A stretch of DNA of 54,840 bases, filler included, from Dirinaria sp. TL-2023a (taxonomy: Eukaryota), in NCBI GenBank assembly GCA_051941275.1. It is 3 parts of 3 records of this genome, joined end to end, with 100 filler letters (N's around TTAATTAATTAA, not from the genome) between each part and the next. Parts side by side here need not be neighbours in the genome. Positions count along the whole stretch, not along the records: positions 18,334 to 36,541 come from JAVEBF010000393.1; 2 more parts are not named here. One strand, 5' to 3'. Position numbers and translations under genes: made by a program. Positions 7,126-35,985 of this stretch are shown piece by piece. Below the pieces are notes generated by a model, which worked only from the letters and a program-made list of their open reading frames with translations, made no database searches and had not been told where the DNA came from. Numbering within the stretch: position 1 is the first letter of the stretch; each line of letters starts with the position of its first letter.

Positions 7126-10100
7126 ATGGCGGCCGAAACCGCAAAACCTTCTTTCCCTAACGGCTTCGAGCCAATAGCTATTGTCGGCATGGGTGAGTCC
7201 CGCATAAGACTACCATGGGATGATCCTTATCGTTGTTAGGATGCAGATGGCCAGGTGGTTGTACGCAGCCTGCGGAGATGTGGGATCTCTTAAGAGAGGG
7301 CAAAGATGCTTATAGCGACTTCCCTGGGGACCGAATTAAAGTAGACGCATTTTTCCACGAAAAGCGGGATCGCCCCGGTTCTTTCTATGCCCGGGGTGGC
7401 TGCTTTCTTCAGTCCAATCCACGAGATTTTGATCATACATTCTTTGGTATCAATCCTCAGGAGGCTGCAAGTATCGATCCCGCCCAGCGCAAACTTCTCG
7501 AAGTCGTGTATGAAGCTTTTGAATCTGCAGGCGTACCATTGGAGCAATTGTCTGGATCGAAAACTGGATGCTTTGTAGGAAATTTCAATTACGACCACCA
7601 ATTGATGCAATTTAGAGACGCGGAGTATCCTGAGCCATACAGCATGACAGGAGGTGGAATGACTATATTGAGCAACCGAATCAATTACGTATTCAATCTT
7701 AACGGTCCAAGCCTCACCCTAGACACAGCGTGCTCTAGTTCCATGTATGCTCTTCATCTTGCGTGCTCTGCTCTGGCAGCAGGCGATTGTACAGGAGCTA
7801 TAGTGGCGGGGTCAAATCTGATTCTGACGCCAGAGTGTCACATCTTCTCTTCGAGTCTAGGAACTCTTTCACCAACATCCAGGTGCCATACTTTCGATGC
7901 CAAGGCAGATGGCTATGCAAGAGCGGATGGGGTTGGCGCCCTATACATCAAAAGACTTGTTGATGCCATCAATGATAAAGACCCAATACGTGCGATTATC
8001 AGAAGCACAGCAGTAAACTCGTAAGCCTTTATGACCCTAGTTATATTCGACTCGATCTGACTTAAGTTGGCGGCACAGGAATGGCAAGACTGGTGGTATC
8101 TCTCTCCCAAGTTCTACAGGCCAAGAGGCCACCATTCGCAGAGCATATGAACGAGCTGGACTCGATCCTGCTGAGACCGATTACGTCGAATGTCACGGTA
8201 CAGGAACAACGCGTGGGGATCCATTGGAAGTCGCTGCGCTGAATGAAGTCTTTGCGCGTGGGAGGTCACAGTCCAATCCTCTCCTTATGGGATCAGTAAG
8301 TATTTCTCAATGCCCTGGGGTGAAGGGCATTAATCATTCAATGTTGCGAAGGTGAAAACGAACCTTGGACATAGTGAATCAGCGAGCGGCATAGCAGGGA
8401 TTATGAAAACCGTCCTTGCGTTAGAAAATGCATCAATACCTCCTGTCGTTGGGTTTCACACCCTAAACCCGAATAGTAAGTATTCTGAAGCCCTTATTCC
8501 GAGGCCAGCAATTTTCCTAGTATTTGACTCGGGGAGGGGCATTTCATGTACTGACATTAAATCCAGTCAACCTCGAAAACGGGCTAATTGAAATTGTCAC
8601 CAAGAGAACTACTTGGCCCAAGAGAAATAGACCTAGACGGGCTAGTGTTAATTCATTCGGTTATGGTGGAGCCAATGCACATACAATCATTGAGTCTGTC
8701 GACTCGTTCGGGCCTCAGTACCAAAGTAAGCTAAGCAATATCGCGGAGAGGATTTCTACATCTTCTTGCGTCCAAACATACCGAAGCCACCTTGAGGGTC
8801 TTACGAACGGTGATGGTGAAATTCAAAGCCCGACAACGGCTGAGGATATAGGTGAAAACACAACATCAGGCCGGGTCACCGGGCGTAGCAGCACAGACAT
8901 CCACTATGCAAACATCAAGAAATGCTCTGATGATCACCCTGTGTCTTTCGACAGAGCTCGAACAAGGTCACAATACTTGATTGTTTTTTCGGCCCACAAC
9001 AAGAGAACGCTGGAACGCAATATAGCAGCCCTCCGAAGCGTAAAGGGCTGGAGAACACACGACTTAGCGTACACTCTTAGCCAGCGCCGATCAATGTTTC
9101 GTCACCGGGCTTTCGGAATCAGCGAAAATGCTCTTCTCGATGGCACTACAATTCCTGAGAATGTTCATATGCACAAGCTCGAAAAATCTCGGCCCCCCAA
9201 TATCTGCTTTATTATGACAGGCCAGGGAGCCCAGTGGACCAAAATGGGACTGGATCTTTACAAAACCTTCTCAGTGTATCGTAAAACCATCCGTGATCTG
9301 AACGGATACCTTCAAGAGCTGGAAAACAAACCTTCATGGACCATTGAGGGTATGCCAATATTCTGCAAACTACCCTTAAATACCCGATTACTTATACCCG
9401 ATTACTTGATCTTCTAACTTTGATTTCAAATTCAGATGCACTCCAATCAATTGCAATCGACAACTCAGAGATATCGCAGCCGGTTACGACAGCTACGCAG
9501 ATTGCCATAGTGGATCTCTTGAGATCCTGGAATATCAGACCCTCTGTAGCCATGGGGCATTCTTCCGGTGCACTGCCATCTTAATGGAGTTTCGATATGG
9601 GCTAACTATTAAGCAGGGGAAATTGCGGCGGCGTATGCTGCGGGGATTCTCACGGCACGAAATGCGATAGTTAACGCTTATCTCCGGGGCTGGACCGTGA
9701 GCCACAATCGTGTTAGCGGTTCAATGCTAGCAGTGGGTGTAGCAGAAGAAGTTATTGTCAATATGCTGAAAGACAATTATCCTCGACTTTCGATTGCATG
9801 TTACAATGGCCCTGAAAATTTTACCATCAGTGGTGACAAAGATGAGATCCTGATGGTAAAACGAGAATTGGAGAACAAGCAGAAATTTGTACGAGAGCTA
9901 GCAACAGATGGCAATGCCTACCATTCCAGTCACATGAGGTTCGTTGGGCACGAATATGAGAAAGAAATCATGCGAAGTCATGCGGAAACGCCGGTACAAG
10001 ATGGGCTTGAGACGATTCCTTTCGTATCATCGGTCACCACAGAAAGGATGAGCAGCTCCCAGATCCAGGCGCCGTACTGGCGAAGCAACCTCGAATCACC

Positions 10101-13100
10101 CGTCTTGTTCGATCAAGCGATTCACCAAATTGTGAAGAATTACGAAATCGATATCATGATAGAAATAGGGCCTCATAGTGCACTACGCAGTCCGCTCAAA
10201 CAAAAAGCACAAGCTATGCCAGATATTGATTTTCCTACCTATCTTCCTAGCCTCATCAAGCATACCAATGGCATCAGCAACATGCTAAATGTTGCTGGAA
10301 CGCTATTTACTAGAGGACAGGCGCTCGACTTTCTACAAATCAACGAGACCGAGAATGAGCAGAACGATGATCATTCTGTAGGGCACAGATCTATCATTGT
10401 TGACTTGCCGCACTATCAGTGGCAATACGATAGCCCACTGTTTAATGAGAATCGCTGGACGCGGGAATGGCGACTACGATCTCACCCAAGGCACGATCTC
10501 CTTGGAAGTCGGATCCCTGGTGGGTCTGACAACCAGCCGACGTGGCGAAATATCTTGCGAACCAAGGATGTCCACTGGCTACAAGACCATTGCGTTGGGC
10601 ATGAGGTGGTCTTTCCTGCAGTGGGATATATCTCCATGGCCATAGAGGCAGCAACTCAAGCGTTTGAGATTAAGGGCGGGGATGCAGATCTGATAGAAGC
10701 ATTCGAGATCCAGGATATGATTATTAAGGCTGCGCTTATTCTCCCATCCCCAGCTGATGGTGTTGAGCTGCTACTCACCCTTAACCTATTGCGATGGGTT
10801 GATACACAACCCCCAGGGTTGATATATCAATTTGTCATCACATCAGTCACAGATCTGGGGCAAGCACAGAGTTTCGTAGAGCATGCAACAGGAAGGTTGG
10901 AAGTCGGGCTTTGCAAAGGTAAATGAGCCTCATTGTAATTTTTGCTACGTTTTGGCTGACTCAACCCAGCCAACAGTACAAATAGCCATCATCTTGGTCC
11001 AGAAAACAGAAATATTGAAAAGAATAAGCTACCTGGTTCTCGTTGGTATGATAATCTGTCAAAGCACGGACTGACTTTTGGACCCTCCTTTCGAAGTCTA
11101 TTGAATCTTTCAGCTTTCGAGAACAACAATATCGTTGAAGCTCAGGTACACGCAGGTGGCGAACAGCAGCCTCCAGCCTCTCACGAATCAAGATATGTCA
11201 TTCATCCCACTAAACTCGACGCGATCTTTCAACTGTCCATCATTGCATCGCACTCTGGAATGCTTTCAAAGCTGAAAAGAGGCTATGTACCCGTTAGCCT
11301 TGAAAGAATAATCTTTTGGCCAAAACATCTTCGCACTGCCAGATCGCTGTGTTCACTGACTGCAGAAGCCACCTCGGTCGGACCTCCTGTTAGTACTAAC
11401 GCAGTTATGTCCACAGATCAACATCAGATCCTATGTGAGTCGACTAATTTACGCTTCAGCGCAATTGATCAACCGTTGTCAGACTTAAAAACACACTTTC
11501 AGCCATACTCCCGTCTGATCTGGAAGCCTGACATTAATTTACTCACAGATGAGAAAGTCGCAATGTTATATCCACCGGTGCAGGCTAATATATGGTCACA
11601 TTTGGATGATCTTGCATCGGAGCAGATCATGCAGTTCTATATCACATTCCAGACATTCTTCAAAAACGGCTCCACCGTCCCACACCTGCAGAAGTTCCTC
11701 GATTGGATGGAAGCAAAGGTCAAAGCTAAATTAGGAAGCAACGCTGCAATTTTGGAGACTTCAGCTGCTCATGTTCTCAGTCGTGCCGCAAGTATTAGAT
11801 CTCATGCCAACGAGCTAAGTCAAGGTTCTAGTGAATGTCGTATCATGTGCCATATGTATCAAAATCTCCCGTCGATATTCAGAGGTGAAATCACAGGAAT
11901 CCAAGCCGCACTACAAAACAATCTCTTGGATGATCTGTATGAGAATGGCCAACTGCTCAGCGAAGGTAACCGGCGTTTAGGACACATCGTCGAACTTCTT
12001 GCACACAAGAGCCCCTCAATGAAGATATTCGAAATAGGTGCTGGTACTGGGAGTGCCACAAAAGAGGTTTTGCGGGTACTCAAGGGCGACACTGACAGCC
12101 GGATGTACCTAGACTATACTTACACTGATATCACTACATCATTCCTTGGACGTGCGGAGCAAAAGTTTGCCAATTTTCATGCCGTCACATATGCAACCTT
12201 CGATATGGAAAAGTCTAGCTCACAGCAAGGGTTTGAAGATAACTATGATCTCATCTTTGCCTCGAACGCGGTTCATGCTACTTCGAATATCGTCGAGACT
12301 CTGAAGAACATCCGCAATTTACTGCAGCCCGGGGGAAAACTAGTTCTGCTGGAGGTTATGAGCTCTTCACTATCGGCGGGCCTAATCCTGGGCACTTTTT
12401 CTGATTTTTGGAAGGCTGATGTGGACACGAATTTTCCAAGGCATGAGGGCCCTTTTCTGAGCAAACAGATGTGGAAAGAGGCTCTTCCTCAAGCTGGGTT
12501 TAGCGGTATTGACCTCCTCCTTGATGATTTCTTAGACCACACATCGAGCTCGGTACTTGTTGCGACGGCGGTAATCTCAGTACCTCAACCTTGTCTCTTG
12601 CCATCGATTCCCGGCCAAGGCCTCACAGTTATTTATCGTGGAGATGGGTCACCTATCGTTAACGCATATCGCGATTTTTTGCGTTCTCGAGGATGTCAAG
12701 TTGATCTCCGTTCTTTGTCCGATCCCTCACTTGACAAATCTCAACAGCAGATTTTTCTTGTTGAAATCAATGTCCCTTTGTTCGATCGTATTACTTCAGC
12801 AGAATGGCGTGGTCTACAAATTGCTTTAGAGCATGCGAAGTCCGTATTGTGGGTCACTAACGGCGGCTTGCTCGATGGCAAACGGCCGCTCTTTGCTATG
12901 ATCCAAGGTATCCTGCGTGGATTGAAAACAGAACGGCCACAACTACGCATATCTACCATTGACTTGGACCTTGACAATGACCAATTCACCAACTCTACGT
13001 TCGACCTCATTTCTCAGCTACAAGTACAGTCCTTGGATGACAGCAAGAAGTACGAGGACTGGGAATATCGACAAAAGTCGGGTATTACATACATTAGCCG

Positions 13101-15733
13101 TCTTTTAGCTGACGGGGAACTGAACGCCTCCTCATACGCTAAAACACAACCCGTCCATACTACCGAAACTATGCGTTATTCTCATTGCCAGAAAACTCCG
13201 ATTCAGCTGTGTATCGATAGAAATTACCGCTACTTTCGAGGAACCTCTGACTTTTTCGTACCTCTGCAGAACGATGAGGTCGAGGTCGAGGTCAAAGCAG
13301 TGAGCCTTTCGAACAAGGTATACTAAACTACACTTCCCATATCTTCTCAGAAAACCTTCGCTAACATATCTTGAAGTTGACAGGTACTGTACCAGGGGTT
13401 CCTGAGCCTACAGGCTCCGGCAGCGGTTTCGTAGGAGTGGTTAAAGCTACAAGCCCGAATGTCAAAAATTTGTCAAGAGAGACCGCTGTATATGGGATCT
13501 CATTCTCCAACATTGGAAATTACATCAGAGTCGACGCCGCATCGTGTCATCCACGACCAGACCAGGGAACTGCCGAGGTAGTCAATTTCTTCTCTTTTCA
13601 GGGTTTCTCTTTTCTGACATTTGGCCCTCATAGGAACTGGCTACGCTTCCAGTAGCATTCTGCACAGCTGTCCATGCGCTTATGGGTCTTGCACGATTAG
13701 AAAGTCAGGAGGTAATCTATCTTCCACGATGCTAGACTGCAAACGCTGAAGTTAATTAGACGATTCTAATCCAAGCATCAGCGAGTGGCTTGGGGTTAGC
13801 TGCAATCCAGATTGCCACTTATTGTGGGGCGAAGGTGAATACTCATTCTTTCCCACTTCAGACTTTCAGTAACAATTTATTGACTTCTGTAGATCTTTGT
13901 CTCAGTGAGGAGTAGTAATGATAAGCGCGCCATCCTCCAATTGAACCTGGGAATCCAGGAAAATAATGTCTTGACGTCAGATGAGTGCTCGTTACCCAGA
14001 GCACTACTTCATCAAAACGGAGGGAAGGGTGCAAATGTTATATTTGTGTGCAGCCCTGGAAAATCCCGGCAAGATTCCTCTTATTGCCTGGCAGAATTCG
14101 GCCGCTTGATCGAAGTCGCAACAAGTACAGACACGCGTATAGATCAGACTTTAGTGAATGTATCACGATGCCACGGGAGCTTCTTCGCCTTCAATATCGA
14201 GACGATCAGCCACCAAAAACCTTCCATAATTGCCAAGTAAGAAATTCCAACTCAACGCAACATCTCGGAGGTATCCTAGCTAAACATGCGACAGTGTGAT
14301 GAAGACAGTTCATGATTTGTGGGTTCAAAAAGCCATTAAACCTATCACAGCCAGGACCATCAATGTCTCCGAAGTGGATGAGCTGTCTGCTCCTACCGAG
14401 GACTGGCTTGAATTCAAACAGCAAGTTCTTACGTTTGAGGACCACAACGCTGTCGTAAAAGTACTATTCTAAATTTTGGACTGTTGCCAAGTCGCAAGGC
14501 GCTGACGACGATCTAGGTCCAAAATTTCCGAATGGATCGGAAGCTAGACAGCGATGCCAGCTATATGCTTGTGGGCGGTCTAGGAGGGCTTGGGAGGCAT
14601 ATGGCGAACCATTTGGCCGCCCGAGGAGCAAGGAATATTGTCTTCCTTTCTCGGTCAGGGGATCAGAACATAAGAGCACAGAAATTCCTTGGTAGGCTTA
14701 ATGAAAAAGGAGTCGCTACATCCGTTATCAAGGGGGATGTAACCTCTGCCAAAGACGTGAACAGAGCAGTGGCAATGTGTGCGAGACCAATTAAAGGGGT
14801 AATACAGGGCGCTCTGACACTGAGAGTAAGCATTTTGCTTGGCCAAGTAGCATCCAATGATTTCTGAACTGACTTTTGGTTCAGGACAATCTTTTTGAGA
14901 AGATGACTCTCGATGATTTCAACACTACAGTCAAACCGCGTGTACAGGGGACTTTAAATCTGCATAATGCGCTCCAGAATGCCCCACTCGACTTCTTCGT
15001 AACATGGAGCTCGTGGACTTCGATTTTTGGAACACTTGCGCAGACAAATTACCTCGCATCGAATGCATTCATGGATGCTTTTGCTTGCCATCGTCGAACC
15101 TTAGGTTCTCCTGCAACTTCCCTAAGCTTGAGCCAGATCTTAGATGTCGGCATCGCGAGCGATGTCCACCATTATCAGATAGCCCTGGACGGAAAGGGGC
15201 TGTACGCGACTGGTGAAGACCGATTTCTCGAATTTTGTGACAGTGCTATAGCTCAATGCAATAGTCCAGTATTTCGAGACACCACTCGCTCCTGCCGGGA
15301 ACTTGACGAAGATATTCTGCGAGGGCATCTTTTGGCAGGTATCGAACCCAAAGGACTAAGCGATCTCGACAAGTCAATGCCGCTTAGTGATATGGCATGG
15401 TATTGGGATCGTCGCTTCTCTGCGTTGCTCTTAGCGATTCAGATCGTCAACAAAGCATCCAGCAATGGGAATGCGGCGACTAGGAGCGCGTGTGAAGCAG
15501 ATTGTCTGGATACAGCTACACAAGTTCACCAAAAAGTCGCCCGATTACTCTATATACCCCAAGAGGATGTAGAGACGTCAATGCCAATTACAAATTACGG
15601 CATCGACAGTATGATTGCAGCCGAGCTGCGCAACTGGCTATTAGAGAGGTTCCAAGCCGACGTCAGTACTTTGACACTCCTAGGACCGAAGACTTCGGTA
15701 AAGAGCATTGTCCAATCAATTGGTGTAGAGTAG
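7126..15733 (+). CDS. Highly reducing iterative type I polyketide synthase, KS-AT-DH-cMT-(ER degenerate)-KR-ACP
   Basis: ATG 7126 (MAAETAK...EPIAIVGMGCRWPG), about 14 GT-AG introns. KS DTACSSS / ECHGTGT / KTNLGHSE; AT GQGAQW, GHSSGE (split by an intron), AYHSSHM; DH WLQDHCVGHEVVFP and HPTKLDAIFQ; cMT EIGAGTGSAT; KR GGLGGLG...QTNY; ACP YGIDSMIAAELRNW. TAG 15731-15733. Confidence 0.96.
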
Positions 15734-16578
15734 AAATACTAAGAGGTGTTAGCGAGGCTGGGACGACATTGGGAAAGCTCCTACAACAGAGAATTCAATG
15801 GTTAGGGTATGGTAAGTATTGCGCACTCTCATGCAGCCACTGCAATTGCTGGTATCATGTAAGATAGAGAGAAATGCACAGAAGCATCTGGACATGTTCC
15901 TTCCTATGCCTTGCAAGTTAGAGTACTTTCTCAAGGTAATCTGTCAGTGCAACAACGCTCAATCGTAGTTTCAGATCATTTCACGAGATCGCAGAGTATT
16001 GGGCCGAGGTAAGTATGAAATGTTCCACGGCCACCACGTTAACAGTAATACCCCCCTCCCCACTTTCAATGGACGCCAGATTGGCAGATTGTTACATTAC
16101 TCGTACCCCGCTTCGAAAGCAGCTCTTGCATCAGTAGGTTCGGCCATGAGAGCGGATATCGGATGCTCCAATTTCTGTTATTACCAAGAGACTTGCTATG
16201 AAAAAGGTAAAAGATACATCAACTCAAGTCTGAAATTTTATGAAACCATGTTAATTTCTTTAGTCCTGGTGTAGGGATGAGGGAGACAGATGTCGCGAAA
16301 TCGGCGTTTCGGAAGGATGCTAGATAAGCCGGTTGACTGCGGCATAAGCTCCTCCACTGAAGTCATCGCGCATGAGGCTGCGGCATTAAATGAGCACTGA
16401 AGTATCGATTCGATTGCTCTTTAGACCCAGTCTAGCGCGGCCTTTGAAAAGCGCTGGGTGTTTATGCTGTATTTGGTATTGGCCTTTGAAGGTCAGGCTA
16501 AGGTTGGATTTAGTGCAAATAACAATTCCTGAATCGAGGGCAATTGCCGGGCTCAAACTGCTACCGAAGACGGCAACG

Positions 16579-17988
16579 ATGGCCTCGTCAGTCAAATTCA
16601 CCACAGCATTGTGGCTTGTCTTCGTCTCGTATGGTCTGCTTACTTCCGCTCTGAATTACTCTAGATCCTATATCTCCGACGATCAAATAAAACAAGCGGG
16701 TATCACGCGTGGCATCGCTGATGCGATGGAAAAGGCCTGGACTTTCGAGAAATTCACGTGGGCGACTGGTTCGGTACATGATGATCCATTCTACGAAGCT
16801 CCGCCTCCCAGCCTGTCTGCCATTCCAGGCCAACTACTCAAGGTAGAAGAGGCCACAGATCCTACGAAGTACACGATCCCCCCAGGCACCGCACTCTCCC
16901 GCATTTTGTTCCAAACACGAACTCTCGCTGGAGCAGCTGTTCCCGCTTCTGCTTTTGTACTGTGGCCATACAGCCCCAGGAGCCAACCTGGAGGAACGGT
17001 TCCGGTGGTGGCTTGGGCGCATGGTACCAGTGGACTCTTCGGAAATGACGGACCATCGCACCTCAAAGGACTGTCTTATCAATTCGCGGCACCTTTCGTC
17101 CTCGCACTCCAAGGCTATGCTGTAGTAGGCCCAGACTATGCGGGCCTTGGGGTGAGCCAAGATGCTCGCGGTAATCCTGTGGACCACGAATACTTGTCCA
17201 ACCCTTCTCATGCTCATGATCTTTTCTATTCCGTACAAGCTGCCCAGACAGCCTTCAAGCAGCTTTCGCAGCAGTTCGTGATTCTGGGCCACTCTCAGGG
17301 TGGTGGGGCTGCGTGGGCAGCCGCTCAACGGCAGGCTATTGAACCCGTCAAAGGGTACCTTGGCACCATTGCATGTGCTCCGGTGACTAACATTTTCAAC
17401 CTACCATCCGACGGCCCATTGCTCCCACTTCTAGTTGCTTTGGTTGTTTACGCTCTCCAGAAAATTAACCCAAAGTTCGACTATCATGAAATATTGACGC
17501 CTCAAGCAGCCCGTCGCTGGGAATTATATTTGCAGCTCGAACCAGGAGCTGGTGTAACTTTTGCCCTCTTTCAAGGTGTAGACTTATTGCAGCCCGGCTG
17601 GAGACAGAATCCGTATTTGCAGGATTTCGTTGCAAGAACTTCGAACGGCGGGAAGCCCATTGGGGGGCCAATGCTTGTGCTTCAAGGCCTTGCCGATACT
17701 AACCTAGACGCTGGAACTGCAAGTCGAGCAGTCCAAGCAACCTGTTCCGCGTTTCCGAGGAGTCAGTTGCAGTATCAGGCATTAGAGGGAATCAGCCATG
17801 TTCCACTCATGTATGCCTCGCAGCAAACATGGCTGCAGTGGATAGCAGACCGGTTCGCGGGAAAGCCTATCCAGGAAGGTTGTTCGAGTCTGAAGACGAG
17901 TCCACTTCTGCCACCGCAGAGATATAGTCCAGAAGTCAATTGGATTGTGGAATCGGCGACCGAGGTCTATGAGTTGGCGATGCCCTGA
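16579..17988 (+). CDS. Secreted alpha/beta-hydrolase of the secretory lipase (LIP) family
   Basis: Signal-peptide-like MASSVKFTTALWLVFVSYGLLTSA from ATG 16579. Motifs VVAWAHGTSG, PDYAGLG, nucleophile GHSQGG, PMLVLQGLAD and the His in GISH. Intronless. Confidence 0.9.
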   Translation: MASSVKFTTALWLVFVSYGLLTSALNYSRSYISDDQIKQAGITRGIADAMEKAWTFEKFTWATGSVHDDPFYEAPPPSLSAIPGQLLKVEEATDPTKYTIPPGTALSRILFQTRTLAGAAVPASAFVLWPYSPRSQPGGTVPVVAWAHGTSGLFGNDGPSHLKGLSYQFAAPFVLALQGYAVVGPDYAGLGVSQDARGNPVDHEYLSNPSHAHDLFYSVQAAQTAFKQLSQQFVILGHSQGGGAAWAAAQRQAIEPVKGYLGTIACAPVTNIFNLPSDGPLLPLLVALVVYALQKINPKFDYHEILTPQAARRWELYLQLEPGAGVTFALFQGVDLLQPGWRQNPYLQDFVARTSNGGKPIGGPMLVLQGLADTNLDAGTASRAVQATCSAFPRSQLQYQALEGISHVPLMYASQQTWLQWIADRFAGKPIQEGCSSLKTSPLLPPQRYSPEVNWIVESATEVYELAMP

Positions 17989-24355: not shown

Positions 24356-26052
24356 TTTCGATGCGGTCGCGAGACGATTAGGAAACCGTATGAACACTGA
24401 CAGTCGTATCTGAAGAATGGCCAAAGAGGTTCAAAATTGACTTTAAAGAGAGCGGAGATACAATAGGAGAAAGACTGTAAGAGCGAAATACGATATACAC
24501 ACAGTGTTTCCGAAAGATCATTCTGAAAGAAGGATCGAGTCCGGTCAAGGAAATATAATAATTGAGAAACATGGCCTCGGTGGGCTGTGTCTGCGCGACT
24601 GATGCGCGACGGCTAGTCTTGGGCGAGATGACCTGACTGTTCACCATTCTATTTCAACCTTGCAGTTACGAGCTCTTTTACTCTCACCTTGGCAAATGCT
24701 TGTAGTCGCAAAGATCCAATCATGGTTTGTGCTTGACGAGAAAATAGAGCCCCATTTCAAGAGCGAAGTCTCTGATTCGCGGGAGGAAAAGCTGCCAAGA
24801 TGCCAATTTGCGGCTGAGCCAGGTTATTACTTTAGATTTGGCCCTTGATACTACCACGTTTCATACGGCAGAAATCCTGGGGGAGATGGTGATAGAAGCA
24901 GTGGTATTATTAATAGGGACCACTTATTTGTACCTACAAATCGATATGTGTACTCCTCCGTACAAGAGAATACCTGCCAAGCCGGAGAGACGATTAGGGT
25001 TGCCGTCAAGGAAAACTGCATACACCATCGCCTACTCCGTCGAGCAATGATATGTGAGTTGGTTATGCTCTAGGAATTCCAATCATTGCCGTTGCCACCA
25101 ATTAATGACGCGGATGGATGAGACTTGTAGACAGAAGCACGAAGCCATGCATACGTTCGATATCGAGAGCGGAATGGAGGCATGCAATGACTGGAAAATT
25201 TGTCAGGTTATGCCATGATGCTCGCTTGATGCATTTATCAGTCATTCGTGTCCCAATTCCGCGAGATATATCATACTTCTCCTGGGATTTTCCTGGATTT
25301 GTATACAGAGGTGAGAGCGGTGGTGGTGGAGGAGGTATTTTTACCTGATCGGGCTTAGTAGCCCTGACCCTCGGTGAAGGGTTTCTTCTGATGAGCCACC
25401 TTGGCTTTCATCGTGGATTTGACAATGAGTCAGTACCACTGTGAAACGCTTCTATCCATCGAAAAGATAGCAAGGAAAGCTTCGCTACTATAATTTTCAA
25501 ATCCAGGTCCGTGGACCGAAAGCAACCTCGATACTCTTTCTCATAGCCGTTTCACGTGGGTCAAAGATAGATACAGCGTTCCGCGAGAGAGAGGATCACT
25601 TTGCAGTATCATGCTATGCCTGCATATCGAGCGAAACTAGCACGCAATAAGTATCACCCACTGTGAGCATAGAGAACAACATTCGATCATCACTTCCTCC
25701 CCAAAGGTTGACACCGGCCAGCGCATATTTGGCATGGGAAGTCATCAAACAACACCCTCTTATTTCGATACTCTAACCAAGCTGGAGCAGGAATTTCTAT
25801 CCTTTTCAAACTCGCACATGTCTCTGCTTAGATGATTTTTGATCGGTGCAAATCAAATCGATGAGTGGACGTAAGGTCGCTGGGTTAAGTCACCGGTAGC
25901 TTCCTCGATTCTAAACATGATTACCTTGTTAATTTTATATGTGGGAATCGCACTCCCCACGCTTCTCCGTTGACATAAAACGTTTCTGGTACCATCCTAG
26001 TAGCTCCATTCAAGTACGGAAATTGGAATCTCATCTCACACACACACCTCCG

Positions 26053-29000
26053 TCACCCAGCAACCCTGCATCCACTCAACCCCACCCAAAAAATCATCCA
26101 TCCCAACCATCCCGCTGCCAACGCCATCAAACCTCTTCTCCCCAACTCTCCCAGCCCAGTAGGTGCAGGTCCAGACGTGAAAGAAGCCGGGCTAAACCCA
26201 CCCACCGGCTGACAAACATTTTGCGCAAGGGCAAAAACCACTTTCATCAGAGAGCTGTTAGCAAGCAAAGCAGAACAAAACAGAGTAAAACAAAGCAAGA
26301 ACTAACTATTCTCTAAAACTTGATTTGAAAGGGGGTTGGGGGGGGGGGGAAAGGAAAGAGCCACACAAACTCGACATATTACGATGAGAGAGATTTGGAC
26401 TCATGTTACATAAAAACTTACTTACCTTCAATTTCCGCACTACTACAACTAGCCATTTCGCAACGACCCACCGAGGAGACGAAGATTTGGTTCTGGCAGA
26501 TACAAGTCAAGTCGTTGATACTACTGCAATTGGCTGCTGCTGCGGAGCCGTAGATGCAGGATTGCTGTTCCAGTTTCATCTCCAACATCAGCGTTTCGCT
26601 CCCATCTTCTGTCGAATTTATATATAAAGGGGGGAGGGGCGGTTACATACGGCGCAGATTGGGAACGCAGAGATATTATTCGGTGCATTCGTCGCCGCTG
26701 GTGGGCTGTTGGGCGCTGAATAAGTCGCTTCGGCGAGTAGTGAGGATAGCGCAGCGCCCGTGGGGACGATGGTTAGTGCGTTGCGGACGGGCAGACAGAG
26801 AGCTGCGGAATAGGCGTTGATAACTGTCGTGTTTTGTATTAAAAGAGTGGGTTAGATATTCAAGTTTAAAGCAAGTAGTAGGTTGTTTCGTGATCGAGCT
26901 TACCCTGGCGCTCACTCCCCGTGCAAGACGCGGTCTCGCATGTTTCGGCGTAGGAGACAAAGATTTCGCTGGTGCAGAGGCAGGTTAGGTTGTGGATGTC
27001 GCAGGCGGCGACGGAGGCGGCTTCGTAAATGCATTCTTGCTGCGCTGGATCAGTTCTGAAGAAGTGTTTGACGGGGATTGAGGCGGGCGTACGGCGCAGA
27101 AAGGCAGGCTCTCGATATCGTTAGGGGCGTTGGCGAGATTCGTCGGTGTTGGTATGATATCAGTGGATACCGGTCGTCCGAATGCAATGTCTGATTCGAT
27201 GCTGATGATTGAAGCTGGGATAGGGATGCCGATTGCTTGGCATCTTTGGATTGTGAATGGGAGCAGTCCTTGCGTGTCGAATTAGGGGGTTGGTTTTCTT
27301 ATGTGCCAGATGAATGAACGTACTTTGAAGATCTAATATTCCACAAGCGGCAGCCTGACAGGTCGAAAAAAGATTTCGAAATGCTTGGCTTTTGCACTGA
27401 CATTGGACGTCTTCTAGTGCGCAGCCGCTTTGGCGGAATGCATCAACCAGGCACGGTTTCTAGTATAAGTAAGTCTCGTACTGTTCTTCTTAAGCCAAAC
27501 CTACTGCGCATGCAGGAACCGATGCCAAATCGGTCACAGCGGTTGTGGTAGGAAGAGCGGCAGATAGAAGCAGCGAGGACTGTGCGGAAGGATTGATGGT
27601 GGGATTGATGGATGCGACGCCTCCTAGAGGTTCGCACTGCTTGCCCGATAGAATCAAAGCCGCTATTACCAGTAGATCAGTGGCAGATCAAGAAGCTAGA
27701 CGTTGACACTGACTGATTTGATCGGTCAAACTACACAGAGCAGGTTCACAAGCGCCGATAGATTCTCCAATGAATCTTGATTTGCACAAGAGATTCAGAT
27801 CGGTAACACTGCCTCCAATCTTGGACGTAGCATTGATTGCGCAGAATTGCTGAGTCAATGAGCTTTGTCTTCGCGCTACCTGTGGGAATTGGAGGTTACT
27901 CACCGCACATTCTGGAAGGCTGGAAAACGGCGGCACTGCACCAGGGACATTTCCTGTTGGGAACACTAATGGAACAGTTGCAGCTTGGAGAGGCGCAACA
28001 GTACCGGTTCCGTTGCGCGACGATTGAGGGATTGTCGTAGATGGTACCAGTGCTTCTCCCACAGCCGAGCATTGAGCGCCAGTATAATTTAGAATAGCTT
28101 TTGTTGTCAGCTACCCGCGGCGTTTTTTGATTGTCACATACTGTATTGATCGGCGATACTGCAAGCCTGAAGCTCACAAAAAGCTACCGATCCTCCTACG
28201 AAAGCCGGATTCACGCATATGCACTCCCAATCCGTAGGGGCGCAGCCACTCTGAAGCAAAGCTGCGTCCACGCAAGGTTGCTACGAAGCTGTCAGTCCAT
28301 CAAAACCCCTGACGTACTGTCGAGATTTGCTTACAGCACAGTCCGGAAGCTTGTACACGCTTGGCTCTGGGCTCGTCAATAGTGCGGTGATGTTCGACGC
28401 ACCAGGGGTTGACGGCACAAGCTGGACACCAACAGCGGCGCAGGCAGTGCTGGTGAAATCAATAATTGCTACATGGCACTATCAGCAATCTGTGATTTAA
28501 GCCGGTATTTTTTTCGAGCGGATAGCACTTGTGAGATGCTAGATCCTTTTAAGGCTATAAATCACCTTGTCGATCTGCCGGACTACAATACTGTTCCTCG
28601 TACGCAGCTGTTACGACAGTGTAAGCCTGACTTTGGCAGATGCATGTCCAATTGGTAGGAGAGCAGCCGCTTTCAGAAGTAGCAATGTCGAGACCCGGTT
28701 GCTAAATCTTTTCAGCTAGTCCTTCCTGGCCAAATGTTTCGTAGGGTGAAAGCTGACCGCGCAAGTCGAAAGATTGAACAAGCCAATATGGTTAGTTCCC
28801 CCAACAGGCTCGCAGAGCTCTATAGCAAGCGTGAAAAGCCCTAAAGGCAAATCAGATTGTACGCTTCGGTCTTACCAAAGAGAATATTCGAGACTCACGA
28901 GTCAGATCAGCAGGACCGCAATTTTGCCCTTCACAAGATTCGACGGAGCTTAAGAAGTTATTGGATTTGCAGATGAAATTTAGGTCGGTAGCATTGACCC

Positions 29001-29179
29001 CAAATTCAGCGGTTGTTCGTTCCACGCAGTTGAGCTACTCGAATTTATTAGCCTGCACAACTTGCAACAGTTTCAAAGGCGAAGATGCTCACAGCGCACT
29101 GAGGAAAGTCGGACGTTGAGACAGCGTCGATGTTAGCTACCGCGCACAAAGCGACGAAGATAATACACAGAAGCCACAT
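26053..29179 (-). CDS. Secreted, probably GPI-anchored protein with seven tandem CFEM domains (15 exons, about 700 aa)
   Basis: Signal peptide MWLLCIIFVALCAVANIDA. CFEM core exons 29034-28899, 28701-28566, 28280-28142, 27849-27714, 27459-27324, 27039-26904 and 26564-26426 (e.g. LPDCA|QPCVDAALLQSGCAPTDWECICVNPAFVGGSVAFCELQACSIADQ). All introns are GT-AG and keep the frame. Hydrophobic C-terminus ...LMALAAGWLGWMIFWVGL. Confidence 0.88.
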
Positions 29180-30781
29180 AGTCGCTGCACTGGAATTCCA
29201 AAGAATCCACGAAACTCTCTCAAACCCCCGCAATGTGAATACTGTACTATGAGGTTGTATGATCTTTATACTTGCGCTAAGCCAAGCTTTGCCGCAATCC
29301 TCTATATGTACGATGACTATAATCATGCAGGTTCTCCACGGAAACTAGGAAATGCAGCTAGCATATCGTAAAGCTATAGCCCAACGAGTAAGCTTTGCGC
29401 GACATCAGCCACTTAACACAGAGATAATGTTCCAGGTACGAGTACATGACCTTATGCATGCATATGATCAACAATAATTTGTCATTTTACATTAATTTGT
29501 TCGATCACAGATACAAGACCTTGTACAAGCTGTTGCTGATCGCACTGATCAACGTGTCAATTTTGAACCAGAATGGTGGAATCCATCTCTTCCGCTTCAA
29601 AGGCTTGTAATTCGGCATGTGTGTGTACAGATAGGCTCAGAAAAGTGAAAGAAAATGCAGAATACTTGCAGAAACCAGAAGTCACGATTTGAAGAAAAGA
29701 AAAAAAAAAAAAAAAAAAAAAGAAAGCCAAAGCCTAGAACGTAGGCCCGACGGCAGAATGAGTGCTGGGTGAAAGATATAATATATACGAGCAGTTGCGC
29801 ATCTTTTACTGTTGTTGTGACGGTTCTGCGTGGTCCGACCACGCTTAATACCAAATCCGTGGCTAAGATTCTCTGCTTCTTGCTCTCTCTGTTGTATTTC
29901 TCATTCTAATTCTAGGAAAGCGGCCCGTGGGTCGTAAGCTATCGACAGGCGGACATTTGTTAAGCATCATCTGGGTGGCAAGCTTCTATTACCATTGCTG
30001 GCTAGTCCCATTCTATTACTGGACTCTGGTTTCAATATGTATTAATGTTGCTGCATCTTTTTTAGCTGAAACGTGCACACTGAGGGCCTTACAGGTCATG
30101 ACTCGATGGCCAATAAGGCGTGTTATGATCGTCATACTCGGTACGTCGTCGAAGGCATAAAAGCATTTCGGCAGCGAGGATTTAACTACATGTTAGATCA
30201 ATCGAATACTTCAGAATGGCCTGTTATTACATGTTATTAGGTCATTTCGTGGATTACGTCAGGTAAAACCCAAAGTTGAGTTAGCTGTTATTACAAAACC
30301 CTTTGATGTTCCTCTTCAGGCTACTCGCGTCATCCTGTTGTAATGCGCGTGGATCTTTTAGATCGTGATATGCTATATTGATCCTTTCTTTCCTTTCCTT
30401 CTTTTCTTATTCTTTTCTTTTTTCAGTTTTTTGCAGCATGCTTCAGCCTTTGAATTCCTACAGACATTATTCTCATGATAGTTATCGGAAGCTTATGAAC
30501 TAGACCCAAACTAAGAATAGATATTGATTGAATATTGTAGCCTAGGAAATATAGAAAATAGTATCTTCGATCAATTCGGTCATTTAAAGATTGGACAAAA
30601 GAAATTCTAATAAACATAATTAAACAATAAATAGACATTTGTTCCATTATGTTCTCACCGTGTGAATGCGAGGGAAGGACGTAGTGAGGACTGCACTGGT
30701 CGCAACAAGTAGAGGTAGGTAAAATGGGCGGTTTGGCCTTAGCGGTCCACAAATAAGCTATGAATGGTAGGCCACCCTATT

Positions 30782-31561: not shown

Positions 31562-32571
31562 AGTTGCAATAAGATATATGATGAGTAGCCCAAAAGAACT
31601 CCAGAGCTCCTTGGAAAATGGTAGAAGTATGAGCTGAAACGGACGTTCGAAGGTGCGGCGGCTTCAGCTGGAGTATAGCAGTCCATTACCTTGAAAGTAT
31701 GCCTTTTTTTCTTTTCATGTTCTTTAGGACAAGCCATTTGTCCGTGTTTAGTCAGGATTGTAAACGATCGCTTTTGGGATACTATCCCATACATAGCCTC
31801 GTGGGATTCTAACACGGTTAGCTGCCTTGAATGCATCAACGTGGTCAGCGTGCATTAAGGCCAAGGAAGCGTCTCGTGATATCTCGACAAATTAAATGGT
31901 TTTTCAGATCATTGAAGCTTTCTTCATGCTGGACCAAGTGTTTTCGGAACCAATGCCTGAAAGGCCATAGCTCTAAGTTGGAGGAGCGGTGTGGGATTAT
32001 TGTTGAGCATTCACATTGCGTTAAATCTGGTCATAAGGGCCTTTAGAAAATCTATGAAGGCTTGGAAGAAGCTGTTAAATCATTGATCACAAATAAGTCG
32101 AAGACTACGAACTACAAGAAGATGTAGAATGGAAGAGATGATGGTGAATTTTCAAGTTTAGGGTTCCAAACACGTACCTGCCAACCCTGCCATTTCTGAA
32201 CTAGCGTTTTCTTACCCATAGGACTATCAAATTTTGCATCCCTGCTAAGTACCTTAGGCACAGGATTACTCGTCAGCCTCTCTCAAATCGCTCCCCAAAA
32301 TACGCAGATTGTTGCTGAGCTGCCTTTGTGATTTGTATCAGAAATTTTGCTTCAGTGACCTTAGTACTAGTCAGCCCTCATGTTCAAGTATCACATCAAA
32401 TCCTCAAGAAAAATCTTTATATCACACCATAGGTATCATTAAGGAAAAGTCGTGTATCACATCGTCACGACCGATAGTGCTAATAAATATGGTATGCTGT
32501 TACCGATGCTGATATCGCGCGATCACGCTGCATTAGACAGCGCTGGAGATTGATCTCTATTCATCAGAGGG

Positions 32572-35500
32572 ATGGACCCGCTCACAGCTTTCAGTGTCGC
32601 GTGTGAAGTCATACAAGTTGTGGACTTCAGCTCACGACTTCTAGCCACTTTCAAGGATATTTACAACAATGGATACCAGTCAGAGTACCAGCATGTTGAG
32701 GAAGCAACAAAGCACTTGATGAGCCTTCGGGATGAGCTAGATTTTTCTCGCAGTAGCGTTCCTCGAATGTACTCACGCCTATCACTAGAAGACATGAGGA
32801 GAGAGACTACTCCTTCGTTGCTACCGTGCATCGAGGGAAGGGCGTCGGGATGCTCGACCGATCGAGACCCACAGTCAGACCATCACACCGTTGATAAGAA
32901 CCTTATAGAAGTAGCCGAGGGCTGCTCTGCCACTGCTCAGCAGTTGATGAAAAAAATCCAAGCGTTGAAAGCCGATGGTCCTCACAAAAAGCGACAGGCG
33001 ATCCAGAAAACTATGAGAGCGTTTCGAGAGAAGAAAGAAATCCAGGACATTCGAAGACGCCTGGACGCTTATCGGAATGCTTTAGATACACGCATCTTAA
33101 TGGATCTGAGACAAGGACTCGATCTTGTGTCAATGCAGGAAAGCCAAGCTTTCCAGAATCTGGACCGTAAAGTTCAGCTTTTGATCACTGGCCTGTCTCA
33201 AGGGCCCAAGAATTATGATGAACTCAAGTTGGCCATACAGACCGAAAGCCAGGCTACAAGGAATCATATTGACCATTCCGTTCAGCAGCATAAGGAGAAG
33301 CTCGACGAGGAAATATATCGAAAGCGACTGCTTGATAGTTTGTGGTTTGAGGAGATCCATAGCCGTGAGGAGAGAATTGCTGATGCTCACAAAGAGACCT
33401 TCGAGTGGATCTTTGCTAGATCTGATCAGTCCGTCGGCTCATGGGATAATTATGTTCACTGGCTCGAGAACGGCCGCGGCATCTACTGGATCAACGGTAA
33501 AGCAGGATCGGGAAAGTCGACGCTGATGAGCTTTTTATGTCAAGATGGTCGCACCAAAGAGTCACTAAAAGTGTGTTCCAAGAAAAAATCGCTCATAATG
33601 CTAAAATTCTTCTTCTGGAGTGGTGGAGCACGGATGGAGAGATCCATCGAGGGTCTTCTGAGGTCGCTGATTTGGCAGATCCTCCAACAGTGCCCAGACA
33701 ACAACGACGAGCTTTCCGTGGTAGTTCCGAGCCAAGATGCAGTCGCTGCGTGGACTGAGCGTCGGCTTCGTTTGAGACTTCAAAACCTAGTTGAACGCTC
33801 ATCGGACTCATGTTACTACTGCTTCTTCGTTGATGGACTAGATGAGTTTGACGGAGACCAAGATAAAATAGTCAGCTTCACTCAGCATATTGCACAGAGT
33901 ACCAACGTGAAGATATGTTTATCTAGTCGCCCTTATCGACTGTTCAGCCAGGCCTTTGCATCTTCCGCAAAACTACAATTACACGATTTGACACAACATG
34001 ACATTCGCAAATTTGTATTTGACAACCTACAGACTATGCCCCAACTCTCCGAGAAGACTTCACAGTATCCAAATTGGCTTGAAAATGCCACTGAGTCTAT
34101 CGTGACAAGAGCGCAAGGGGTTTTTCTGTGGGTTGCCTTGGCGGTAAAGGATCAGAAACGTGGCATCAGAAATGACGATAGCCTAGAACAGCTGAAAACT
34201 CGACTAAGCAGCCTGCCCAGCGAAGTTGAAGGAATCTATGCGCGCGCGCTCAACCAGATTGAAGGCCTCTACAAGAGCGAAGCATCACAGTTCATGCGAA
34301 TCGCTCTCCATGTAGAGAATCAACCTCTTCTTAATTTTGTGCTACAGACATGGGATGAATTGGACGAAGTGCTCAGCTCTTCGAACGGCCTACCACAAAT
34401 GAGGATAGTCCAAAAGTCGAACAAGATCCGAAATCGCATTCTAACCACTTGCCCTAGCCTTTTAGAAGTTCATGACAGAGATGCTACCAATGTTCTAGAT
34501 CCAATGGCCAACTTTGTACCCAAGGGCAGCGTTTTAGTTTTTCCTGGCGAAGCCGATGAGGAACGCATATTTACCATTGCATCCAAAGTCACCGTAAATT
34601 TCATCCATAGAACCGCCTTGGATTTCATGCGACATGCGGGGCAAGGAAAGGCTTTTCTACAGGCCAACACACCCTCGGACTTCGATCCCCAAGTATCGTA
34701 TGTTAAGATGTTGCTCGCCAGGTTGAGGTTGTTCGGGGTAGAACAAACAAGCTTGGATGTGGACGACATTATGCGTCATACATGGGTGGCTGAGAAGAAG
34801 ACTAGGGTGCCACAAACAGCACTATGTGACCTTATAGATCATACCCTACGGAGAATCGACGAGAAAAGCCATAGGGCAGATCGCAAAAAGAAAACTTGGC
34901 CTCCGAACTCCCACTGGTGTACACGCTGGGGAATGTTGAAGGTTTTGGACAGCAACGAAGCCCTACTGGTCCCAGATTCGGAAGATAATGTTTCCACAGA
35001 GTTGAATGAGTCGATCAATCCTGCAAGCTATCGATCGGACCAGAAAAATGGCATCGGGGCATCATCGGGGCAGGTACAGGGCCGCGAAAATCAACTGGGC
35101 TGTTCAATCAGCGACCTAACGTCGCACAACAGTAATCCCTTGGAAAAAGAGCCAGATTTCCTCACCTTGGCAACATCGCATTCCCTGTACCGATACGTAC
35201 GACATGTCCTTAGCTGCCGGAGTACCTGTCTTGACACGGGTGAAGCAAGCCATCTCCTCTACCATACAGTAATGTCATTTGACTGCGTCGATGAACCAGG
35301 TGAGAAGTGTGTGGCATCTGCGGGTTTGATGAATGACCTACTTCGACAAGGTGGCAACCCCAACTTAGAGCTACCCCCTTTTGAGGATCCTTCTTCTACC
35401 ATCTGGTCATCGTTTCTGCTGATAATGCAGGACTTTTTACATTCCACCTGGAGCCCAGCCTGGGATCCATCGTTTTCGACCAAATTGCGAGGATCTTTGT

Positions 35501-35985
35501 TACAAATCGTGTCAGCCTTCATCGAGCGGGGAGCAGATCTAAATTCCGTTTATGACGAACGGATAAGAACAAACACTCTCAATCTCGACATATGCAATTC
35601 AAATCACCGTCCAAGCTATTTCCACCCATCAAGTTACTACCGATTTCAAATTCAACTATCTGCATTGACGATTATTAACTACTGTCTTCGAGACCACCCC
35701 GGGTTTTCAAACCTCCGAGATATCTGCGTTGCCAAAGGCGCCAAATACCACTCCAGATGCACACAGGTCGAAGACAGAGTAAAGATAAGCGGTCCCGACG
35801 GAACTCGCCCAGTCGCTGGCAAAATGTGTGTTGAGTTATCCGAAGCAGATTCGGCCAGATTCTTTGCTATATTTGAGAAAGATCTCGCGACTGCATCGGA
35901 AAAATATCAATTTTTGAATAATGCCACGACTTTGGGCAATGATTTGTGCGGAGGTGATCTCAAGCCTTTAGGTGCAGTTGTCTAA
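32572..35985 (+). CDS. Fungal STAND/NLR-like NACHT NTPase with N-terminal HeLo-like helical domain
   Basis: N-terminus MDPLTAFSVACEVIQVVDF; motifs IADAHKETFEWIF, Walker A YWINGKAGSGKSTLM, Walker B FFVDGLDEF, ICLSSRP, AQGVFLWV and VNFIHRTALDF. Single 1137-aa exon. Confidence 0.92.
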   Translation: MDPLTAFSVACEVIQVVDFSSRLLATFKDIYNNGYQSEYQHVEEATKHLMSLRDELDFSRSSVPRMYSRLSLEDMRRETTPSLLPCIEGRASGCSTDRDPQSDHHTVDKNLIEVAEGCSATAQQLMKKIQALKADGPHKKRQAIQKTMRAFREKKEIQDIRRRLDAYRNALDTRILMDLRQGLDLVSMQESQAFQNLDRKVQLLITGLSQGPKNYDELKLAIQTESQATRNHIDHSVQQHKEKLDEEIYRKRLLDSLWFEEIHSREERIADAHKETFEWIFARSDQSVGSWDNYVHWLENGRGIYWINGKAGSGKSTLMSFLCQDGRTKESLKVCSKKKSLIMLKFFFWSGGARMERSIEGLLRSLIWQILQQCPDNNDELSVVVPSQDAVAAWTERRLRLRLQNLVERSSDSCYYCFFVDGLDEFDGDQDKIVSFTQHIAQSTNVKICLSSRPYRLFSQAFASSAKLQLHDLTQHDIRKFVFDNLQTMPQLSEKTSQYPNWLENATESIVTRAQGVFLWVALAVKDQKRGIRNDDSLEQLKTRLSSLPSEVEGIYARALNQIEGLYKSEASQFMRIALHVENQPLLNFVLQTWDELDEVLSSSNGLPQMRIVQKSNKIRNRILTTCPSLLEVHDRDATNVLDPMANFVPKGSVLVFPGEADEERIFTIASKVTVNFIHRTALDFMRHAGQGKAFLQANTPSDFDPQVSYVKMLLARLRLFGVEQTSLDVDDIMRHTWVAEKKTRVPQTALCDLIDHTLRRIDEKSHRADRKKKTWPPNSHWCTRWGMLKVLDSNEALLVPDSEDNVSTELNESINPASYRSDQKNGIGASSGQVQGRENQLGCSISDLTSHNSNPLEKEPDFLTLATSHSLYRYVRHVLSCRSTCLDTGEASHLLYHTVMSFDCVDEPGEKCVASAGLMNDLLRQGGNPNLELPPFEDPSSTIWSSFLLIMQDFLHSTWSPAWDPSFSTKLRGSLLQIVSAFIERGADLNSVYDERIRTNTLNLDICNSNHRPSYFHPSSYYRFQIQLSALTIINYCLRDHPGFSNLRDICVAKGAKYHSRCTQVEDRVKISGPDGTRPVAGKMCVELSEADSARFFAIFEKDLATASEKYQFLNNATTLGNDLCGGDLKPLGAVV

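Follow-up and report, generated by a model that had tools for sequence, protein, structure and literature searches.

We analyzed a 54,840-nucleotide stretch of DNA (filler included, hereafter the window) from the Dirinaria sp. TL-2023a assembly GCA_051941275.1 and describe a single spliced gene on its minus strand that encodes seven tandem CFEM domains. The coding sequence (CDS) runs from an ATG at 29179 to the final stop base at 26053. The model, assembled from numeric coordinates only, has 15 exons, a CDS of 2151 nt, and a product of 716 amino acids, with a single, terminal stop codon. Every one of the 14 introns is GT..AG and between 44 and 185 nt long, and by-eye reading of the intron ends finds a CTRAY-like branch motif close to the 3' end of most of them. 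A preliminary description of this DNA had placed a 15-exon gene at 26053..29179 and called it almost invisible in the track of open reading frames (ORFs). Both statements held up. The limits are the exact ends of the CDS, the 14 introns join the exons into one 716-residue frame, and the gene is almost unseen as ORFs because the longest open frame within the locus is 140 amino acids.

RNA evidence for the splicing comes from four runs of one sample in one study, labeled as a lichen metagenome, and all four hold part of the locus. A single contig per run (X1–X3; 2398, 2451, and 2392 nt) spans positions 25990–29243 with 14 joints. Eight of the 14 joints match the introns of the model exactly, two agree with the alignment's own “cut +1,” and two have one substituted boundary letter; introns 6 and 8 are considered with the interpretation below. 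The source organism is a relative of this strain, and its single ~2.4-kb contig skips all 14 introns. The contig also covers all exons, and the spliced frame has no internal stop, in keeping with the earlier proposal of one transcript without premature stops. Contig depth in these assemblies is no guide to expression rank.

Two orthologs carry the same product. A word search with a frame from the window found P0001, a protein of 715 amino acids that occurs only in assemblies of reads. Its contig, no longer than 2451 nt, is too short to contain the 3.1-kb locus. P0001 and the model are identical at 689 of 716 aligned columns (~96%), and of twelve-residue windows placed over the 14 junctions, 10 are identical and 4 have one substitution each. 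The second ortholog, P0002, is independent evidence; it has 710 amino acids, is 63–64% identical to the model, comes from contigs of up to 2530 nt, and has the same architecture. The CFEM locus of this lichen-type ascomycete is a single genuine gene that is spliced and expressed.

The RNA-contig match also marks the untranslated regions (UTRs). On the minus strand, the 5' UTR extends over 29180..29243 to the limit of the match, without an upstream ATG (contig piece 29093–29243), and the 3' UTR extends over 25990..26052 (contig piece 25990–26240). A putative TATA-like box (TATAAAG) lies at 29264..29270, on the same strand, ~21 nt upstream of the match limit at 29243. Farther into the promoter, at about 29700–29737, there is a run of more than 30 T (one C inside) in the minus-strand reading, ~520–560 nt upstream of the ATG. 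A run of at least 12 C is found in the last intron, near 26340.

Exons, CFEM domains, and predicted anchoring

Core exons and linker exons alternate along the gene, and all coordinates in this section are on the minus strand. Exon 1 (29093..29179) carries the ATG, a signal-peptide-like start (residues 1–15 by eye), and the first Cys of repeat 1, as supported by hydropathy and an RNA joint. The core of repeat 1 occupies exon 2 (28899..29034; Pfam CFEM, 22.2 bits); it has six cysteines, lacking Cys 3 and 4, and is of the Asp type, a term we use for units with Asp at the position of the axial heme ligand of Csa2. Exon 3 (28758..28840) holds the last Cys of repeat 1, a 16-residue spacer, and the first Cys of repeat 2. 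Repeat 2 has its core in exon 4 (28566..28701; Pfam CFEM, 16.2 bits), with six cysteines, lacking Cys 2 and 6; it is of the Asn type, and the residue, N119, sits in an N-W-T sequon. The core of repeat 3, in exon 6 (28142..28280; 31.6 bits), has eight cysteines, is of the Asp type, and is the most Csa2-like of the repeats (4y7s, E 7.2e-05). Repeat 4 (exon 8, 27714..27849; 15.9 bits) is again a six-cysteine, Asp-type unit without Cys 3 and 4. The remaining three cores all have eight cysteines: repeat 5 (exon 10, 27324..27459; 33.2 bits) is of the Asp type, repeat 6 (exon 12, 26904..27039; 26.7 bits) is of the Asn type, with N522 in an N-L-T sequon kept in P0002, and repeat 7 (exon 14, 26426..26564; 28.5 bits) is of the Asp type. 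Between them, exons 5 (28335..28468), 7 (27904..28097), 9 (27505..27662), 11 (27093..27268), and 13 (26651..26823) hold the ends of repeats 2 to 6, respectively, each followed by a linker and the first Cys of the next repeat; exon 7 has the longest linker, 53 residues core to core. These exons and exon 3 are placed by the model together with RNA. Exon 15 (26053..26240) contains the last Cys of repeat 7, a short Ser/Pro/Gly stretch, a putative glycosylphosphatidylinositol (GPI)-like signal, and the stop codon at 26055–26053, as judged by hydropathy and alignment with the tail of P0002.

The layout of these exons is regular. Core exons of repeats 1–7 are 136, 136, 139, 136, 136, 136, and 139 nt long and start in phase 0, and they alternate with linker exons of 83–194 nt that start in phase 1. 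In every unit, both introns sit at identical positions and phases. A two-exon unit of this kind (phases 0 to 1, then 1 to 0) is frame-neutral and therefore fits tandem duplication of the unit. The shared exon layout is a fossil of that duplication, despite a pairwise protein identity of only 23–45% among the seven repeats. Tandem Repeats Finder found no repeat in the coding DNA of the gene. The seven modules would thus have come from an old tandem duplication of a unit made of a 136- or 139-nt core exon and a linker exon, and each module would then have been retained with its own peculiarities.

A Pfam scan with CFEM (PF05730) returned seven stretches in both P0001 (198 bits) and P0002 (213 bits). 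When the core exons of the model were scanned singly, all seven matched and five of the seven reached the cutoff of 22 bits. By family hidden Markov model (HMM) score and cysteine pattern, the protein is a member of the CFEM family. The family fold is a helical basket with four disulfides. Csa2 of Candida albicans (4y7s) is the sole relative with a solved structure, and repeat 3 matches it by sequence at the E value given above. In the PDB, the core exons of repeats 1 and 5, each searched by itself, had no match with an E value of 10 or below.

From first to last Cys, the cores are 57–58 residues long, and the six segments between them measure 16, 33, 53, 41, 47, and 46 residues. The preliminary description had read the protein as a signal peptide, seven CFEM domains separated by Pro/Thr/Ser linkers, and a GPI-like tail. 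This predicted order of parts stands, but the linkers are only moderately rich in these residues, with Pro, Thr, and Ser together at 25–40% compared with 24% in the whole protein. Identity to P0002 is 299 of 443 positions in the domains and 124 of 207 in the linkers; from the latter figure, the linkers are under constraint too.

Eight characteristically spaced cysteines make up the published CFEM consensus. Four of the seven units have all eight canonical cysteines and three have six (repeats 1 and 4 without Cys 3 and 4, repeat 2 without Cys 2 and 6). The 50 cysteines of the mature part, and the paired absences, are all common to the model, P0001, and P0002. CFEM domains without Cys 3 and 4 have been described before, in MbCFEM4 and MbCFEM11 of Marssonina brunnea. 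Because the losses come in pairs, the pattern suggests that each lost pair forms one disulfide.

Hydropathy calculated over 19 residues shows two hydrophobic segments only, the first ~20 residues and residues 691–710. Windows 1–5 at the N-terminus score at least 1.87 and the tail scores 1.66 at residue 691, and between residues 6 and 690 there is no 19-residue window with a mean of 1.6 or more. We also considered a type III receptor, that is, a Pth11-like protein with seven helices, and this candidate is ruled out because only the N-terminal and 691–710 segments are hydrophobic. The tail has a candidate omega residue (Gly683), a spacer with Arg-Arg-Gly, an 18-residue hydrophobic stretch (692–709), and seven more residues. 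In P0002, the hydrophobic stretch closes the protein, and a Gly that could be the attachment site and the Arg-Arg-Gly align with those of the model. We take an ending like that of P0002 to be typical of GPI signals, and the GPI reading of the model was made by eye under rules that we presume to apply. The 716-residue gene product is most likely secreted and fastened to the plasma membrane or the cell wall through a GPI-type signal at its C-terminus. Under the classification of a 2026 review, hydropathy and the tail alignment predict that it is most likely a “Type II” (GPI-anchored) CFEM protein.

The heme-ligand column and Asn sequons

In Csa2, Asp80 is the axial heme ligand, and Tyr36, on an extended N-terminal loop, stacks, according to a review. 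The same source reports that changing the equivalent Asp to Ala abolishes heme binding in Rbt5 and Pga7. We therefore looked at this column in the Dirinaria protein. Repeats 3, 6, and 7 aligned directly on Csa2 (D, N, and D, respectively), and the others were placed by internal alignment and the HMM. Across repeats 1–7 the column reads D, N, D, D, D, N, D in the model and P0001, and D, D, D, D, D, N, D in P0002. The alignment thus confirms the pattern proposed at the outset, with Asp in repeats 1, 3, 4, 5, and 7 and Asn in repeats 2 and 6. All three orthologs keep the Asn of repeat 6, which is therefore old. That of repeat 2 is variable: it is replaced by Asp in P0002 and is present in a relative from Physcia.

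N119 and N522 both fall within N-x-T sequons. We surveyed the ligand column in 235 CFEM units of the retrieved proteins, leaving out the model and P0001, in a sample that is biased toward relatives. The column holds Asp in 156 units, Asn in 56, a gap in 17, and other residues in 6. As Asp is the family default (156/235), it discriminates poorly for heme binding. Ser or Thr stands at position +2 in 34 of the 56 Asn units versus 26 of the 156 Asp units, an odds ratio of 7.7 (Fisher p 1.8e-09, relatedness ignored). A link between the Asn and a sequon is not mentioned in the available part of a paper on Asn-type Verticillium proteins, in the 2026 review as covered by term searches, or in further literature as covered by titles and the starts of abstracts. 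“Asn-type” CFEM domains may be glycan-capped, with an N-glycan on the ligand position itself. If the link holds, it would give a physical explanation for the published split between Asp-type and Asn-type domains.

Multi-domain relatives and known systems

An exhaustive search retrieved 196 proteins at E up to 0.001. With an HMM built from the seven units, 143 of 154 proteins had at least one unit: 84 had one, 43 two, 10 three, 1 six, 4 seven, and 1 fifteen. The sample is biased, and within it the statement that most CFEM proteins carry one domain is correct (84/143). Proteins with at least six units among the 154 were the product described here, P0001, P0002, and three annotated, unnamed yeast proteins, from Trichosporon asahii (EJT47794.1, 15 units), Candida verbasci (CAI5756656.1, 7 units), and Candida jiufengensis (KAI5951188.1, 6 units). 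In these secreted yeast proteins, as in the Dirinaria product, which is predicted to be secreted, at least six CFEM units share one chain. Unlike it, they have eight cysteines in every unit and are 1340–1960 amino acids long. Each yeast array includes near-identical copies, with maximum identities of 99%, 95%, and 100% and medians of 63%, 36%, and 97% (T. asahii, C. verbasci, and C. jiufengensis, respectively), whereas the Dirinaria array is uniformly old (24–45% in this comparison) and mixed. At 25–28% identity to the Dirinaria protein, none of the three is an ortholog. Proteins of Pneumocystis have been reported with 2–6 CFEM domains.

Closer relatives are found in other lichen fungi. KAG6986515.1 of Physcia stellaris (2 units) is collinear with repeats 1–2 at 57% identity and has the same six-cysteine pattern and the same Asn. 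KAM0798434.1 of Usnea florida has 3 units, and KAL9576744.1 of Teloschistes has 2 stretches by Pfam and 3 by the unit HMM. All three belong to the same family, have a similar hydrophobic tail and 2–3 units, and are annotated as “hypothetical protein.” The Physcia model (P0005, 364 amino acids) runs ~130 residues past a tail-like stretch ending near residue 229 and may be over-extended.

Our searches of protein collections turned up the seven-unit form in transcript assemblies alone, and no full-length annotated model of the gene. A word-indexed search of proteins of 393–1252 amino acids returned only P0001 and P0002, but this is silent on rarity because it missed proteins that the exhaustive search found. 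In a metagenome scan, the one locus returned (L001) matched over a single domain at 38% identity, and a protein atlas gave only generic CFEM clusters at 0.87, which is under the atlas's own reliability mark. The seven-unit CFEM architecture is rare, though not new in kind, and its ortholog group is unannotated.

CfmA-C of Aspergillus fumigatus, Ccw14 of Saccharomyces cerevisiae, and Ssr1 of C. albicans are single-domain proteins. We compared them by description only, as GPI-type CFEM proteins whose loss is reported to affect wall stability, and the reading that we prefer below takes its analogy from them. Csa1 (Wap1) of C. albicans is the known multi-copy case named in the preliminary description, and published accounts do give it four CFEM domains. 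As is predicted for the Dirinaria protein, it is secreted and GPI-type, and both have several CFEM domains in tandem, those of Csa1 being of the Asp type. Its four domains are 83–100% identical, so Csa1 was recently amplified; it is 1018 amino acids long and is encoded head-to-head with FRP2. The Dirinaria protein differs in having seven domains at 23–45% identity, mixed in both cysteine number (six or eight) and ligand residue (Asp or Asn), within 716 amino acids and with no FRP-like neighbor.

Csa2 (structure 4Y7S), Rbt5, and Pga7 share the CFEM fold family with the Dirinaria protein, in which repeat 3 matches Csa2 and the axial Asp is present in 5 of 7 units. The Candida proteins are described as having a single domain and a long N-terminal handle with Tyr36, whereas several of the Dirinaria units have no handle or none that can be assigned. 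A parallel to repeats 2 and 6 comes from VdSCP76 and VdSCP77 of Verticillium dahliae, which have Asn in place of the axial Asp. These are reported as small, free, secreted, single-domain proteins of a plant pathogen, while the Asn units of Dirinaria lie between Asp units in a chain that is predicted to be anchored.

Possible functions and neighboring genes

The reading that we favor, with moderate confidence, is that of a wall-anchored CFEM surface protein with a role in the wall or at the surface, where it might organize the wall, mediate adhesion, or capture ligands at the boundary with the environment or photobiont. A review credits GPI-anchored CFEM proteins, in A. fumigatus and in yeasts, with a part in wall stability. 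The body of the protein would be a chain of seven disulfide-stabilized CFEM modules. Anchored in the wall, this array would present several small ligand-binding baskets at different wall depths or along the hyphal surface. As many as five Asp-type modules could each bind a ferric porphyrin or some other flat, hydrophobic ligand, and the two Asn-type modules, with the Asn in an N-x-T sequon, would probably be glycan-capped and non-binding. We consider a wall or interface role more likely than dedicated uptake of heme iron.

Several observations weigh against this account or parts of it. The wall role is argued only by analogy. The RNA comes from a close relative ~96% identical in protein and from one sample, not from this strain, and P0001 is probably a translation of the RNA contig, as both are traced to 2451 nt, and is therefore not independent evidence. 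At introns 6 and 8, the RNA contigs skip lengths equal to those of the model (44 and 51 nt) with the joints placed 4 and 2 nt off. The offset at intron 6 is due to one base difference, which is also behind Thr239 in the model versus Ser in P0001; at intron 8, the model's placement alone yields the residues present in P0001. Repeats 2 and 4 are under the Pfam cutoff when scanned alone. The seven residues that follow the hydrophobic stretch in the model and P0001 would allow a single-pass membrane anchor in place of a GPI anchor. Finally, the sequon statistic comes from a biased sample and ignores relatedness.

The strongest competitor, possible but in our judgment doubtful, is a dedicated heme-iron scavenger or intramolecular relay, in which the Asp modules would bind ferric heme like Csa2, Rbt5, and Pga7 and pass it inward along one polypeptide. 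The ligand column speaks for it: Asp stands at the Csa2 Asp80 position in 5 of 7 repeats of the model and 6 of 7 of P0002, although the two proteins are only 63% identical. The alignment of repeat 3 with Csa2 also speaks for it. Heme binding by Rbt5 and Pga7 needs this Asp, and the tandem CFEM domains of Csa1 are described as likely to be active in heme uptake. Set against this, Asp is the default residue of the family (156 of the 235 units), and in both Asn units the sequon falls on the very residue of the ligand column. The two cysteines that flank the Asp are absent from repeats 1 and 4. The N-terminal handle is a further difficulty. By our count from the alignment, Tyr36 of Csa2 lies 26 residues ahead of the first Cys, while repeat 1 begins only 12 residues past the presumed signal peptide and repeat 2 only 16 residues past the preceding core, which would be too little space for a handle like that of Csa2. 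Ahead of repeat 5 there is no aromatic residue. Aromatic residues do occur ahead of other cores, judged by sequence only: Tyr at -22 (repeat 7), Phe at -18 (repeat 4), and Phe at -28 (repeat 6).

The genomic context also fails to favor heme-iron uptake. We searched for ATCWGATAA, the SreA-type iron-repressor box of Aspergillus, which may not hold in the Dirinaria fungus. With up to one mismatch, it is absent from the promoter (29180–30400), and the 19 matches in the window compare with 28 expected by chance. A ferric-reductase family is likewise absent from 69 of the 70 window ORFs of at least 110 amino acids, the 70th being the CFEM frame itself. In C. albicans, PGA7 and CSA1 have promoters in common with the ferric-reductase-like FRP1 and FRP2, a divergent synteny known only for Saccharomycetales. 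Csa1 is not known to have a phenotype, and deletion of csa1 has so far been reported to give no heme phenotype. These iron tests take away supporting context, but some units may still bind heme. A bolder version, which we regard as very unlikely, would have the single polypeptide replace the whole Candida relay (Csa2 to Rbt5 to Pga7): seven differently tuned baskets across the wall would relay ferric heme, or porphyrins derived from chlorophyll, inward from the photobiont to the membrane, with the glycosylated Asn units as fixed non-binding spacers. A linked general claim would have an N-glycan at the ligand position as the defining trait of “Asn-type” CFEM domains.

Less probable than a heme-iron scavenger, and unlikely overall, is a partner-directed surface protein, whose array would act as an adhesin or effector-like modulator toward the photobiont or other organisms, with the Asn modules active as in the Asn-type Verticillium proteins. 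In its favor, the three orthologs share the Asn of repeat 6, and the Usnea relative has Asn in 3 of 3 units. Secreted proteins with a CFEM fold in a lichen fungus are reported to include members up-regulated in the thallus, and the RNA used here comes from a lichen metatranscriptome, but contig depth cannot rank its expression. The Dirinaria protein is also predicted to be tail-anchored and not free, and Asp replaces the Asn of repeat 2 in P0002. As for an artefact, that is, several small genes, a pseudogene, or a fragment of a Pth11-type receptor, the short frames of the ORF track (at most 140 amino acids) and the 2- to 3-domain models of annotated lichen genomes might hint at it, but its probability is close to nil given the single RNA contig that covers all exons with 14 joints, the lack of an internal stop or internal hydrophobic segment, and the second seven-domain ortholog on contigs of up to 2530 nt; the open 716-residue frame and the 14-joint contig contradict the pseudogene and several-gene forms.

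On the preferred reading of a wall-anchored surface protein, the gene offers lichen biology an expressed candidate with seven modules, each of them conserved. It also illustrates how repeat genes with short exons escape annotation. The CFEM family and its multi-domain forms are already known, and a specialist would be interested, not surprised. Worth following up are the mixed array of Asp and Asn units with six or eight cysteines and the sequon at the ligand position. The seven modules would serve as a test set for the determinants of heme binding in CFEM domains, comparing eight with six cysteines and Asp with sequon-bearing Asn.

The families of the window ORFs are those of ordinary fungal genes, and none hints at the function of the CFEM gene. 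Directly upstream of it is a minus-strand glycosyl hydrolase-like gene, and the window also encodes a glycoside hydrolase family 31 (GH31) glycosidase and a lipase-like hydrolase. A highly reducing polyketide synthase at 7224–15733 (+) is split over ORFs with ketosynthase, acyltransferase, dehydratase, methyltransferase, ketoreductase, and acyl carrier protein domains. It is flanked by Zn2Cys6 regulator-like and lipase-like hydrolase ORFs at 1814–3082 (-) and 16390–17988 (+), and the region is a possible secondary-metabolite cluster. The ORF at 5269–5640 (-) matches PF20684, a fungal rhodopsin domain, with 108.8 bits; Pth11-like receptors typically have this domain as their membrane part. The long ORFs adjoining this one have no CFEM match. 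A long ORF at 32554–35985 (+) has NPHP3_N/NACHT and DUF7791 domains and encodes a fungal NLR-like protein.

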